Source: a bacterium
GTDB lineage: Bacteria > SAR324 > NAC60-12
Reading direction: 5' to 3'
Length of the DNA: 10,226 bases
NCBI GenBank assembly: GCA_965233585.1
Contig: CBDDTI010000414.1
Location: forward strand, 1 to 10,226
The stretch's first letter is position 1, and each line of letters starts with the position of its first letter. Positions 10 through 7,410 of the stretch are shown here, in pieces. A program made the position numbers and the translations under genes. The notes beneath the pieces were generated by a model. It made no database searches. It had not been told where the DNA came from and worked only from the letters and a program-made list of their open reading frames with translations.

Positions 10-480
10 ATAAATACCTCTTACTAACCGAGTTTGTGGTCCGTACCGTAAGTTACGGACCGAGTTTTTCCCCCTTCGATTTATGGCCCAAGCGCGAAAC
101 GCGCGGGCCATAAATCGCGGGGGAAAAAGCCGAAGATCCGTAACTTACGGTACGGACCGAGAAGACGAGGTTAGTAAGATATTTATTATATCTCTATTGG
201 GTGTCTGACGTGTTCGGGAACGATTTCCATCCATGAGAAACGGGCTCAAATTTAAGCAAAACGAGTCAATTTGAAATCGTTTTCAAGTCGTTAGCACGCT
301 GTAATGCGCAATTTAGAGTGAAAGAAAGTTTTCAACTGTTAGTTGCTTCATAAGTTGAGAAAATTCGGTGATAAATCACTCAACACTTTGGCAGCAAAAA
401 ACTTTAGCGGTCCGTGCAGGAGAGTACGGCCCGCTAAATTGACCAATCACAGCGCGTGCACTAACTTATAGATATAATAA
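10..480. mobile_element. Non-autonomous hairpin-ended element A (terminal palindrome plus internal end-complementary segment)
   Basis: Imperfect palindrome 10-186: 10-29 pairs with 169-186, 38-59 pairs perfectly with 137-158, and 65-89 pairs with 105-128. TTATTATATCT (183-193) is the exact reverse complement of the far end AGATATAATAA (470-480). CCAATCACAGCGCG at 443-456. Both ends carry ATAA (10-13, 477-480). No ORF. Confidence 0.75.
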
Positions 481-700
481 TTCGACTTCCAACTTAAGAT
501 CTCACACAGAATTGTCGAAATTTCACGTCATATATTCTATGTAACTCGGCTGTAAAGAAACCAAAATTGCCATCTGGTTACCTGAATCCTCGAAATCAAT
601 ATTCTTTCACTGTAAAAGAATATCGCCCGAATTGGTTTTGAAGAAAAATTGAAAATAGCATTTGGAGACTTAATTATGTAAATGCAAAAGAGACAAGTTA

Positions 701-1225
701 CACCCGCTTTCAGTGTTACGTGCATAGGCGACATCTTCGTTCATCTTTCGACATGCCATCTTTCGACATGCTATTTAAACGGCTGTTTAACGGTGAAACA
801 GGCAATTTTTCATATTATTAGCGGAAGAAATGACAAATAAATGATAATTACTGACCTCACATGGCTGAAGAAGTTTGATAACATCACGTGTTTCCAGATT
901 TACAAGATAATTGAACGAATTGCGTGGAGTCGATTAGCTCTCAATGGTGACTTCCGGTACAATTCAGGCCGCTACGCGTTAGGTATTCGAAAGATGTAAA
1001 CATTCAAAACAGTCAACTATCTATCACAGAATGACTTCCTGATACTCTGAACTTAGGTTTGAAGTAAAATAAATCTATCTTCTATGACTAAAAGTCGAGA
1101 TCGATCGTAAAAGAGTCCGTTGTGTTATCATTTTGATGTGGGCCAGGTTACAAAGCATGTCGAAAGATGGCATGTCGAAAGATGAACGAATATGTCGCCT
1201 ATGCACGTAACACTGAAAGCGGGTG
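701..1225. mobile_element. MITE, Tc1/mariner-type (TA target duplication)
   Basis: 72-bp terminal inverted repeats at 701-772 and 1154-1225 with one mismatch. Flanked by TA on both sides (699-700, 1226-1227). Each TIR contains a tandem 15-mer CATCTTTCGACATGC (742-756, 757-771). Non-coding interior. Confidence 0.9.
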
Positions 1226-1752
1226 TAAAACCTACCAAACTTTAATTTAGGAAGGGCAAACTGTGAGTAAACGGTTGCTAAAACTTAGCATCAAGAACAG
1301 TTATATAAAACCTGGTTAATTCTTAGCTGAATGATTTTGAAGTTGGTCGGTGATTTGCAAGTTCACGGGGACTTACTAGTTTTCGAAGATGAGCGTTTTA
1401 AAGACCATACCAGCAAAGAGTTCACTAAATCCTTTAGAAAAAAAAGTAACACAAATTTAGTGTTTGATCCCATCTGTACGATATCCTCAAAAAGAGGCAA
1501 AAGAGCTTAAAGTCAGAAACGAGGTAAAAAGCCAAATAGAGCCGATAGATTCATGCCCACTAATGGATAAAGAGATACAGGTATTTAACAGGGTCGGCGG
1601 GCTTAGAAATAACAAGCCAAGAGCATTGCTAAGCCCAGCTTGGATGAACACAGTGTCTATATTGGCATGAGACCCAGGCAGGAGCAACGAACTTAATGTT
1701 CCAAACAAAAACACGACAGTAAGGAACAGCGACAGTGAGGAAAGCTAAGCAC

Positions 1753-2075
1753 ATTAAGGAATGGACGATGTCTAGCGTGCGTCCATCCAATTCGAGATGC
1801 ACGCAGATAGTTGAGAGAGCACGAAGGTGAGAGATGCTCGCAGCCGAGAGCATCTCTAGCTACCTAAATGCTCTCCCAACTATCCGCGTGCATCTCGAAT
1901 TGGATGGACGCACGCTAGACATTGTCCATTGCTTTTGTCACATAGCAAGACATTTTTCACGCTGAAAAGTCGAAATTTCACCGACTATTACTGAACCATC
2001 TCTATGAACCACCCATTTCTTTTTCATAAAATATTAGCTAATCAGAGCGCGCCCTTGCATGTAGCTATGTTATTA
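1753..2075. mobile_element. Non-autonomous hairpin-ended element B
   Basis: Arms 1760-1821 and 1869-1930 are complementary at 59/62 positions, with an inner 10-bp stem 1830-1839/1848-1857. ACATAGC (1940-1946) just after the hairpin is complementary to GCTATGT (2064-2070). CTAATCAGAGCGCG (2038-2051) lies the same distance from the end as the motif in element A. ATTA at both ends (1753-1756, 2072-2075). The right boundary is less certain than the hairpin. Confidence 0.7.
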
Positions 2076-2296
2076 TTTATGATGCTCAAATCGCGGGATT
2101 AGACCATTCAATGAGCCTAAAATTTGTTTTTGTAAGCTGTGTGAGACACTGAGATGCCTAATGATTGTGCCGAATTCAGCTGGAGCATAGAATGTTGAAG
2201 TTTTGAATTATGATCTCTGTTTTTGTTTTGTTTTTTGTTTTTTGTTTTTCTACATCCTAACAGCAAAAATTAAAATAAAATTAGACACATTGGCTT

Positions 2297-2420
2297 GAAG
2301 ATATGAATCATTCATAGGATTTTGCTATTGTGGTAAAAGCAATATGTTATTAACTCGCTGCGCGGGTTTCGTAAAATATTGTTTTAACTATTCGCAGAAT
2401 GATGTTCACACGTTTTCCTT
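2297..2420. repeat. Highly degenerate hairpin, possibly an old hairpin-ended element
   Basis: 2331-2349 versus 2372-2390 are complementary at about 15/19 positions. Weaker outer pairing of TGAATCATTC with GAATGATGTTCA. GC-rich loop. Confidence 0.35.
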
Positions 2421-5493: not shown

Positions 5494-6149
5494 ATTTAGG
5501 GTGACAGTATTCAGTTTTATCATTAATTTTTAATGAAGACTCATTGCGCGCATTCACTGATGATTTTCGTAATTTAAATGCTTCTATCTTAAGAGGATTC
5601 TTATCATCTTTTAAATGGTTACTGTAGATTTTCAAGGGCCGATTTTTTCGAAAATATTTTCTCCGAGCCAAATTCAAGACTACCACTTTATTTGCATTTT
5701 CTAAAAAAATATTTTGAAAACATAAAACGCGTACGAGTTATCCCCCAAAACCTGATTTTTTTAAACAAGTCAACAACCCACAAACTGTGTTAGGTTAATT
5801 AAAACAATGTCAACCGTAAACCTGAGCAGCAACGATTTTCGCGGCAATCCTATCCGCCGACTTCGGTTCTATTGTTTTTAGCACCTCACGTCTTGTAAGA
5901 CAGACTCTGCTTTCACCACCTCTGCTAAGAAGACAAACCTGAACGATGATTCACGCATTTAGTTATAATGTGTTGACTTCGGCAGCTTTCAGATGTCTTT
6001 CGAAACTCTTCGCAGAAAACCCTGAAATGGTACGGGTGATTGTCGGAAGTTTTAACAAATGTTTGGGTAGTACTCGTTAATCTTCGGAAGGGTTCGGGTT
6101 ATCTTCGGAGTTGCACGGAAAACGTCTTATTACTTTTGGCTATGAAATA

Positions 6150-6465
6150 AAGTTAATTTGAACTGCGCAAAAGCAGATGAAATTGAGATGTGACCGTCGC
6201 AGTTGTAATCGTAATTTAAGCAATTGAAAATTTTAGCTCGAAAAAATTTTTCAGGGATTCAACTTGATTCGAACCCGTGGCCTCTGCGTTAGCGCTGCAT
6301 TGCTCTACCAACTGAGCAATGTTGGGAGCAGACGATTTATCGAGTTCATTCTTACCCGTGACAGGAATGAGCTGTAAGATGAAGTTAACTTGAACTGCGG
6401 AAATACAGATGAAACTGAGATGTGATCATCGCAGTTGTAATCGCAATTTAAGCAATTGCAAATTT
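6150..6465 (-). repeat. tRNA-derived (SINE-like) tandem repeat, about 232-bp period, about 1.4 units
   Basis: Direct repeats 6150-6233 and 6382-6465. Between them, on the minus strand, a tRNA-like segment with A box TTGCTCAGTTGG (6319-6308), D-arm GCTC...GAGC, B box GGTTCGAATC (6275-6266) and downstream T-runs. Acceptor and T stems are broken, so it is not a functional tRNA. Confidence 0.75.
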
Positions 6466-6487
6466 GAGTTTTCAAACCTGCCACGCT

Positions 6488-6559
6488 TTGGCAGCGTTAG
6501 CTGAACATTGCGAGTATGGAAAAGAGAGAGACGTTATGACGAGAGACCAAGTGCTATGG
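6488..6559 (+). pseudogene. gag: Ty3/Gypsy gag fragment, part upstream of the insertion
   Basis: Manual translation gives LAALAEHCEYGKERDVMTRDQVLW, matching the L..LA..C.(F/Y)G......RDQ motif of Gypsy-type capsids. It joins in frame to 7411 when 6560-7410 is removed. Confidence 0.75.
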
Positions 6560-6668
6560 TTATATAGCTAGACTTTCACTCAACAAAATGAGCACTGTGA
6601 TTGGTTGATTCTTGGTCACGTGCCCCTCGTGTTTCCCTCGGGACTATACATTAAGTGTATATTGTTAT
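6560..6668. mobile_element. Internally deleted hairpin-ended element C (opposite orientation to A and B)
   Basis: Starts with TTAT at the gag break. TGATTGG (reverse of CCAATCA) at 6598-6604. 6630-6658 resembles the terminal hairpin arm of element D (7375-7403). Only one arm survives. Confidence 0.55.
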
Positions 6669-7410
6669 ACCTCCCAACTCAAATACGTTTCCTGATTGGA
6701 GGAGAACGCGTCACATGCCATTGGTCAAAACTCAATGACGCCCTAGGACGAGCAAAACTCAATGACGCCTTAGAGAAACAACACCTTGAACTTTGGACTT
6801 GCACGTGATCAGGTCGTGCACCTTGAAACCGCGGCAAATTTATGTACCGGTCGGCCTGATGTAAAAAGCCATTGAAGTAGGACGTTTCTCATTAGAGACG
6901 GCATTCATTATTCAAGAAAAGGAATTTATAGTCGCAAAAACATATCATGCAGATTAAAAAATGGGAAAATATGAACGTTTTGTGTCTCCAAGCTTGTGGT
7001 TTGGCGCCAAAAATGGGTTGCCCACGTTCGTCAACTCGCTCGTCGATCGTGGTCGCTTGGTAGGAAAGTGTTGTGTAATTTACAACAAAATATGCAGTTC
7101 CTGATCAAACCAAACTCAAAATGCTTGAGTTAAACCTTAGAAGAGACCAAAGCAACTTTAGTACTGTCTATATTTTTTTTAGCTGCGACGAAAAAGACTG
7201 TTATCGTGATTTTTCGATAGAACAGGTTGGTTTTCGCAGCCGCTCAATTTTGCGAGTGCAGCCAGTGTATGCAATGACCTCAAGCAAATAATATTTTTTG
7301 GAGCTTTTTCTATTTTTGAGTCGGGAGGTATAACAAAACACTTAATGACTGGCTATAAGGGAAACAATGAGTTTTGTTTCCCTTATGGCCAGTCAGTAAG
7401 TGCTTAATGA
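6662..7410. mobile_element. Non-autonomous hairpin-ended element D (opposite orientation to A and B)
   Basis: 6662-6683 is complementary to 7315-7336 (21/22). This is immediately followed by terminal hairpin 7337-7367/7374-7404 (28/31, 6-nt loop). TGATTGG at 6693-6699. The right boundary is fixed by resumption of gag at 7411. Confidence 0.8.
6726..6773 (+). repeat. Tandem duplication, 27-bp period, inside element D
   Basis: CAAAACTCAATGACGCCCTAG (6726-6746) and CAAAACTCAATGACGCCTTAG (6753-6773). Confidence 0.85.

Follow-up and report, generated by a model that had tools for sequence, protein, structure and literature searches.

Four non-coding elements with a common end layout

The stretch analysed here (the window, 10,226 nucleotides (nt)) is the whole contig CBDDTI010000414.1 (C414) of assembly GCA_965233585.1, which comprises 12.0 Mb in 747 contigs, mostly of about 9 kb and with a GC content near 0.40. 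Inside this assembly, which is labelled as a bacterium, the window looks like a eukaryotic, coral-like contig. We treat it as cnidarian host DNA binned with the bacterium because of its eukaryote-like features (microsatellites, a high-copy repeat at positions 6150–6450 and a zinc-knuckle gag remnant at 7506–7811), because public sequencing runs with small shares of the window, of which 22 were listed and none was recorded as RNA, carry coral or coral-reef metagenome labels, and because the named relatives of the recombinase described below come from corals and sea anemones. Positions 1–7410 contain no open frame of at least 90 amino acids, so the four elements that lie there, A to D, are non-coding as window copies. 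A preliminary description of the sequence had proposed that they are non-autonomous members of one recombinase-mobilised, possibly Crypton-like class that inserts without target-site duplication, and this proposal is supported by the shared ends and the recombinase-bearing long copies reported here. We consider it likely that A–D are non-autonomous, internally deleted derivatives of CryptonA-type DNA transposons.

The layout recognised earlier in A, B and D consists of a long terminal hairpin (arms X and X′) and an adjoining stretch (Y′) that is the inverted complement of the opposite end of the element (Y). We folded these three elements as single-stranded DNA (A also within window positions 1–500, and A and B also alone), and both the folds and the matches between the ends bore out the layout, with slight corrections to the coordinates given at first. 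Folded by themselves, A and B adopt minimum-energy structures whose 5′ end is paired with the bases that immediately precede the hairpin.

Element A lies on the minus strand. Its 3′-terminal hairpin at 10–186 (a fold of 177 nt with a z-score of −12.6 within positions 1–500 and −12.2 alone) forms an end common to the copies, in which the conserved sequence starts at position 14 (ATACCTCT) instead of 10 and the four preceding bases are semi-conserved (WTAN). The internal Y′ at 183–197 abuts the hairpin, matches Y at 466–480 in 13 of 15 positions without gaps and is paired in the minimum-energy fold. Y forms the 5′ terminus, where the element strand reads TTATTATATCT..., and around 30 nt from this end a CCAATCA motif (443–449), followed by GCGCG, is conserved in the aligned copies. 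The family consensus of the end complement is TTATTATATCTCT / AGAGATATAATAA. Approximately 11 copies of A, with 76–85% identity, cover and share both ends, and there are sister families that keep the homologous hairpin with end repeats that differ but match mutually (..ATGGCC, ..ACGACT and others).

Element B, also on the minus strand, has its 3′-terminal hairpin at 1754–1935 (fold 1756–1934, about 180 nt, z −18.0; −15.2 alone), with arms at 1756–1828 and 1862–1934 that are 90% complementary according to a repeat search. The left boundary is common to the copies on C189 and C172. Next to the hairpin, Y′ (1938–1948) matches Y (2062–2072) in 9 of 11 positions, which is weak in this copy, and is paired in the fold; in two of three aligned copies, however, the stretch beside the hairpin reads TAACATAGC and thereby mirrors the far end of the window copy (GCTATGTTA). 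The family comprises one other full copy, from which alone the boundary of Y was taken, and one partial copy.

Elements D and C lie on the plus strand. The 5′-terminal repeat Y of D (6662–6683) directly follows the 3′ end of C and matches Y′ (7315–7336) in 21 of 22 positions, the two being paired in the fold (z −7.5). Y′ is followed by a 3′-terminal hairpin at approximately 7337–7406, which is shorter than the span of about 140 nt in its relatives, and a TGATTGG motif (an inverted CCAAT box) lies at 6693–6699, around 30 nt from the 5′ end. The D family includes one copy at 92% identity and several partial copies, as well as a longer copy on C209 that carries inverted tandem-repeat insertions and no transposase. 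Element C (6557–6664) combines a 5′ piece at 6559–6627, with TGATTGG at 6598–6604, and a 3′ hairpin-arm end at 6630–6664. In longer elements on C127, C417, C695 and C400, the counterparts of these two pieces lie apart, so C is an internally deleted copy in which a 5′ piece and the terminal portion of a D-type hairpin arm have been kept. The description of C as a truncated relative of D stands, with the refinement that the parent belongs to a sister family of D and that the internal deletion is extreme.

As a side observation, the 3′ end of one element can lie within 0–4 nt of the 5′ end of the next, as for C and D at window positions 6655–6668; a similar head-to-tail adjacency, with a D copy followed by a C-like copy, occurs on C209 at around 6540–6560. 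Beyond these two cases, no tail-to-head tandem pair was present among 273 catalogued elements.

Long copies with such ends encode a tyrosine recombinase

Following the suggestion that long copies with the same kind of ends be sought and their frames inspected, we found that such copies encode a tyrosine recombinase of the DUF3504/Phage_integrase type. A PF00589 search of the assembly yielded 11 matches, eight of them on small eukaryote-like contigs. Phage_integrase is carried by the long elements on C338, C255 and C400; the frame on C255 also scored DUF3504 over its cut-off, and the piece on C400 was weaker. Searching with the protein encoded on C338 revealed further copies and fragments in the assembly. 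At E≤1e-5, this protein has 398 homologues, among whose precomputed domains are DUF3504, QRICH1 and Phage_integrase; these homologues are named ZMYM2-like or KIAA1958-like in Porites, Acropora, Montipora, Pocillopora, Exaiptasia and others. In an alignment of 12 recombinase sequences, H237, R240, H263 and Y272 were invariant and R106 nearly so.

Four of the genes, on C338, C255, C400 and the metagenome locus L051 (same locus as L076), had long frames and enough flanking sequence to be assessed. All four point towards the hairpin, which starts approximately 200–400 nt past the gene. The element on C338 (L139) begins with Y at 821–849 (TGTTTATTATATACATAC...) and two CCAATCA boxes, followed by a gene with its ATG at 1078, one intron and a stop at 2618; Y′ at 2903–2931 (29 nt, 97% complementary) is directly succeeded by a hairpin at 2925–3086 that ends in ..GAAATCTAT, giving a total length of about 2.26 kb. 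On C400 (L136), an element of around 1.9 kb carries a 5′ TGATTGG motif, the recombinase in three frame pieces, Y′ and then a D-type hairpin, with Y and Y′ matching in 11 of 13 positions. Both of its ends are shared with window element C, at 95.2% identity over 63 nt (C400:5184–5246) and 96.9% over 32 nt (C400:7064–7095). The minus-strand element on C255 (L137) has a Y/Y′ match of 13 of 15, two CCAAT boxes, an ATG about 245 nt from the 5′ end and a hairpin about 210 nt past the stop, and is directly followed by a short C/D-type element. At L051, the 5′ end is lost or masked by a head-to-head copy of another short family, F, and the recombinase is split into several frame pieces; the 3′ part of this locus (tandem repeats, Y′, hairpin and the end ..GTAATATCCTCCAT) matches family F. 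Termini shared between non-autonomous and recombinase-bearing copies were thus found twice, for C and the C400 element and for family F and the 3′ part of L051.

The 1.9–2.3-kb elements on C338, C255 and C400 contain no other long frame and, in particular, no reverse-transcriptase frame. Since the recombinases are mutually only 26–29% identical and their ends differ too, gene and ends look to have diverged together, rather than the gene having been captured repeatedly. The strength of the link to the recombinase varies between the window elements. It is direct for C, given the shared ends, and consists of hairpin homology and a similar 5′ terminus for D. For A, it is formed by the architecture, the terminal motifs (TTATTATAT.. 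and ..GGTAT/..CTAT) and the insertion-site bias described below, and for B by the architecture and a GCGCGC-TSTGATTRG block that is shared and equally far from the 5′ end.

The remaining recombinase matches are fragments or lie at contig ends (C5, C280, C179, C433, C26, C385 and C311) and are hardly informative. C311, however, has a hairpin beside its truncated recombinase remnant, and the terminal sequence of this hairpin (..GAGGTATTTATCT) is similar to that of A. DIRS-like copies on C72 and probably C146 are separate elements, with reverse-transcriptase-like frames recognisable by eye beside the C72 recombinase. A search of the genome contigs with the recombinase alignment gave 40 pattern matches, none of which was confirmed.

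Further observations concern individual contigs. C311 (L140) contains a tandem duplication at 1651–3030 with a period of about 1279 nt, the unit of which carries a hairpin and the truncated recombinase remnant. Within the recombinase intron on C338, positions 1451–1568 form a near-perfect 118-nt palindrome (59-nt arms, 97%), probably a small inserted palindromic repeat, because copies of its first 20 or so codons are scattered on other contigs. The homologous contigs C639 and C647 have an A-like end next to a DUF7869 frame; this was considered as a candidate autonomous element and rejected, as the end belongs to a truncated A fragment that neighbours another repeat. These DUF7869 frames (E 2.8e-14) lie at 2774–3712 on C639 (L032) and at 4128–4634 on C647 (L033), the contigs being 95–98% alike; the frame may be another transposase-like host gene, and no publication on DUF7869 was found.

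Insertion occurs without target-site duplication

A further short family, E, came to light through a member lying within an A copy on C129. Both of its ends are covered by nine other copies, which are 96–97% identical and about 505 nt long and have sharp termini (TTATTATAT...CCTCTAT). As with the roughly 11 full-length copies of A, boundaries are therefore common among copies, a point that had been singled out for checking. Scanning the 3′ end of family E against metagenome contigs returned 99 stretches, 80 of which were retrieved.

Three empty sites were identified. The first is given by C226 (filled) and C303 (empty), which represent the same A-copy locus (ATATCT^TACTAAC); the second by C129 and the A consensus (TTATTAT^ATCTCT); and the third by C609 and C645 (CTAAT^GAGTTG), where the 3′ joint contains four additional bases (GTAT). 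No target-site duplication was present in these three sites beyond an ambiguity of 1–2 nt, nor did family E show one among 31 flank pairs, seven of which match over 2 nt when 6.3 are expected. Both data sets agree with the absence of duplication that had been proposed from the window alone. For full-length A copies, the assembly contained no empty site.

The insertion sites of family E are biased. Among 31 distinct copies, the base before the element is T in 24 and the base after it is T in nine; at the three empty sites the junction is T^T, T^A or T^G, in each case ambiguous by one T. The four bases of the 3′ flank are D, T (27/31), A or C (27/31) and T (21/31). The elements hence prefer insertion after T and before an NTAT-like sequence, a bias that resembles the joined element ends (TAT/TTAT, the slash marking the joint) and into which the semi-conserved WTAN beside the hairpin end of A fits.

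The layout and its CCAAT-type motif recur across the assembly

To survey the layout, hairpins were listed by self-BLAST of every contig below 300 kb (three larger contigs were left out), resulting in 1545 hairpins after merging. The 30 nt beside each hairpin were compared with exact inverted copies located 60–3000 nt away on the same side, with a region from an unrelated contig as control. An exact inverted partner of at least 12 nt was present for 362 of 2997 hairpin sides versus 33 of 3059 control sides, and in 194 of these 362 candidates Y′ abuts the hairpin (gap of −4 to 2 nt). Once low-complexity repeats, elements above 1.5 kb and gaps above 12 nt had been dropped, 266 candidates remained, among which 147 different repeat cores were represented; the candidates were 390 nt long in the median, and their hairpins spanned a median of 139 nt. 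Across the elements described here, the inverted repeat measures 10–29 nt, the terminal hairpin 64–190 nt and the whole element 0.1–2.3 kb. Another 21 long-range candidates (3–15 kb) with a hairpin and an end complement were rejected; they were long terminal repeat retroelements, had repeat-rich frames or had no long frame, and none contained a transposase.

The CCAATCA-like motif that had been noted in all four window elements is indeed there, even though it is degenerate in B (CTAATCAGAGCGCGC at 2038–2052, with CTAATCA at 2038–2044), where the C189 copy has CCAATCACAGCGCGC and hence CCAATCA. Assembly-wide, TSATTGG oriented in this way and located 20–50 nt from the 5′ end occurs in 41.5% of 241 candidates compared to 2.9% of random 90-mers, and the two orientations stand at 103 to 2. 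TSATTGG is common to window element C and the C400 element; it lies in the 5′ piece by which the two are homologous and, on C400, precedes the gene. The motif is best explained as part of the promoter region of the recombinase gene that the short derivatives have kept; a role as a cis site for transposition is possible. As many candidates carry it, oriented, near one end, the motif could matter for host gene regulation.

Relation to Cryptons and Helentrons

The long copies share with Cryptons, as described by Kojima and Jurka (2011, PMC3212892), a single gene for a DUF3504-type tyrosine recombinase, the absence of reverse transcriptase and of target-site duplication, and ends with only short, imperfect similarity to the insertion site. 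In that description, Cryptons are present in cnidarians, DUF3504 is tied to the CryptonA group, and non-autonomous derivatives keep both ends and outnumber their parents. What differs from the animal Cryptons described there is the inverted repeat, its internal copy abutting a terminal hairpin, and the CCAAT-type motif of many families. Such structured ends look new for Cryptons, because the published animal Cryptons have no terminal repeats, and A–D are better described as Cryptons with a previously undescribed end structure than as a class apart from them. Judged from search listings, we found no publication that deals with hairpin or inverted-repeat ends in Cryptons, with coral Helentrons or with a CCAAT motif at the ends of Helitrons; Repbase or Dfam may already hold entries for individual families.

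Several observations weigh against placing A–D among the Cryptons. For A and B, the link to the recombinase rests on the architecture, on similar terminal motifs and on the A-like hairpin beside the C311 remnant. Y/Y′ matches as good as those of C400 (11/13) and C255 (13/15) also arise by chance in such a scan, the C400 and L051 genes are broken into several frames, and the L051 element has no recognisable 5′ end. Joined ends of family E, from a circle or a tandem copy, numbered zero in the assembly and 141 loci. According to Kojima and Jurka (PMC3212892), no terminal repeats, whether direct or inverted, were found in animal Cryptons and their non-autonomous derivatives. Lastly, there are families with a variable 5′ T run and central tandem repeats, both described for Helentron derivatives, and the published end layout of Helitron-like element 2 (Helentron, Helitron2) is the same as the one found here, with terminal inverted repeats of 12–16 nt and a stem-loop after the right repeat (PMC11417382).

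These last points lead to the main rival, namely that A–D are non-autonomous, HINE-like derivatives of Helentrons. In this scenario, a Rep/helicase would nick the element at its 5′ end, the 3′ stem-loop would signal termination, and the resulting single-stranded copy, possibly a circle, would integrate at a T and create no duplication; the recombinase genes inside some copies would be captured cargo, and Helitrons do capture genes. Insertion at T, no duplication, variable terminal Ts and central tandem repeats are traits of Helitron-like element 2 and of the HINE and DINE-1 repeats (PMC4067079, PMC11417382, PMC5148889), and the elements studied here show similar traits: there is no duplication in empty sites or flanks, a T precedes 24 of the 31 family E copies and follows nine, while the described insertion is between T and T, the length of the 5′ T run varies between copies in several families, and family F contains central (GGAAATCTTC)n repeats. 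The asymmetric preference for a short AT-rich site is likewise reminiscent of the ‘TNAT’ reported for FoHeli1/2 (PMC5148889), although the 3′ flank here prefers NTAT and not a plain T. We nonetheless regard a Helentron origin as unlikely. A search for Rep-helicases, which the preliminary description had advised, detected no Helitron Rep domain, with zero matches to Helitron_like_N (PF14214) in the 12-Mb assembly and none in the 21 long candidates, and the only PIF1 match in the assembly is a 697-amino-acid frame on the 1.07-Mb contig C747. This absence is weak evidence, since the search covered about 9.5 Mb of a host genome that is probably far larger. Captured cargo would also have to account for recombinases that are only 26–29% identical and yet lie sense-oriented between the ends in all four assessable cases, with similar spacing in the three that keep a 5′ end. 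Moreover, HINEs as described in PMC4067079 have palindromes of 5–10 bp located 8–35 bp from the end, whereas the hairpins here are many times longer (64–190 nt) and mostly reach the 3′ terminus. The preliminary description had set Helentron derivatives aside; we rank them second, since the PF00589 search and the inspection of C400, C338, C255 and L051 showed recombinases inside the layout, but their published end layout, being the same, makes them the main rival.

Very improbable, finally, is that A–D are cut-and-paste miniature inverted-repeat transposable elements of the DDE-transposase type, in which a palindromic foldback copy sits beside a normal copy with terminal inverted repeats of the same superfamily: the outer ends of the A hairpin (ATACCTCTTA..) do resemble the terminal repeat of the remaining element (ATATCTCTTA..), and hairpin-only and body-only A fragments exist, but the empty sites argue against such neighbours, target-site duplications are missing, the composite is itself copied across both ends in A and E, the hairpin ends are unlike the terminal repeat in D and E, and inverted partners adjacent to hairpins are in excess genome-wide, with the many distinct cores reported above.

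As Crypton derivatives, the elements would be organised as follows. A full element of about 1.9–2.3 kb would read, from 5′ to 3′, Y, often with one or two CCAAT boxes within about 50–140 nt of the end, then the recombinase gene (ATG around 250 nt in, as on C338, C255 and C400), Y′, and the long hairpin X–X′ extending to the 3′ end. The recombinase would be its only gene, and short elements of the A–D type would keep the ends alone and be moved by it in trans. The Y′–X segment, complementary to both termini, would bring the two ends together. Since Y′ directly adjoins the first hairpin arm and the two are complementary to the termini, a single strand could fold with its first and last bases side by side on an internal ‘splint’. 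In this folded strand the ends might meet as a nicked three-way junction; in a double-stranded circle, alternatively, they might do so within one long palindrome that has the hairpin loop at its centre. The T/NTAT site bias may reflect microhomology with the joined ends, as proposed for Cryptons. The joined ends of A would read TAAGAGGTAT-TTATT-ATATCTCTTA, in which a 5-nt spacer separates two inverted arms of 10 nt each that agree in 9/10 positions; inverted arms around a short spacer are the usual form of a tyrosine-recombinase core site (PMC3212892). No such arms were seen in family E.

A comparable arrangement is mentioned for DIRS retroelements, which have inverted terminal repeats and an internal complementary region (PMC13465315). 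The elements described here differ from them in having no reverse transcriptase or RNase H and in their length of 0.1–2.3 kb. DIRS elements possess a tyrosine recombinase, and their internal segment by the right end is complementary to both termini; by analogy, the Y′–X segment could play the role of this region. In integron attC sites and in the attachment site of the CTX phage, a tyrosine recombinase acts on a hairpin-formed site in single-stranded DNA, and the likeness of these bacterial folded-strand sites to the end structure here is purely an analogy. With these parallels in mind, we put forward as a tentative and rather doubtful idea that in coral Cryptons Y′ and the first arm juxtapose the termini, in a folded strand or a cruciform at the circle joint, and that the recombinase acts on a hairpin-borne site, like the recombinases of integrons and the CTX phage. 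If this idea is right, some ‘HINE-like’ repeats that are placed among the Helentrons by structure alone may derive from Cryptons, and the elements would spread oriented CCAAT-box promoter modules across the genome.

Among eukaryotic DNA transposons, Cryptons are some of the least understood; it is difficult to define where they begin and end, and the papers cited here show no cis-acting site or mechanism. Owing to the sharp ends, a young family (96–97% identity), empty sites and candidate autonomous copies of about 2 kb, mobility of the elements could be tested with a mini-element and one recombinase gene. The results also hold a warning for annotation, as the rule ‘terminal repeat plus 3′ stem-loop’ for non-autonomous Helentrons is equally satisfied by elements with a tyrosine recombinase.

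Other features of the assembly and the window

The assembly is labelled as a SAR324 bacterium with 92% completeness and 2% contamination by marker genes, and it seems to hold approximately 9–9.5 Mb of animal, coral-like contigs plus three bacterial-size contigs of 0.6–1.1 Mb. One of these three, C745, contains a copy of A within an (ATTATC)n microsatellite at about 583 kb and may, on account of this copy, be host DNA or a chimaera.

No Rfam match was obtained in the window at E≤0.01. Positions 698–1228 harbour a separate 531-nt element with 81-nt terminal inverted repeats that are 96% complementary (TTACACCCGC...); it has an 89% copy on C626 and partial copies on other contigs, and is without the hairpin layout of A–D. 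Two 98-nt direct repeats (6139–6236 and 6371–6468, 86% identical) surround a segment at about 6240–6340 that has around 100 matches in the 12-Mb assembly and appears tRNA-like (SINE-like, that is, resembling a short interspersed nuclear element) by eye, without an Rfam match. The zinc-knuckle frame at 7506–7811 (zf-CCHC, E 3.7e-9) is probably a retroelement gag remnant, and long (AAT)n / (ATT)n microsatellite blocks in inverted orientation lie 3′ of it at approximately 7886–8350. Further interspersed repeats are located at 5107–5412 (about 7–11 assembly matches), 8400–9350 (about 4–5) and 9850–10226 (about 10–35).

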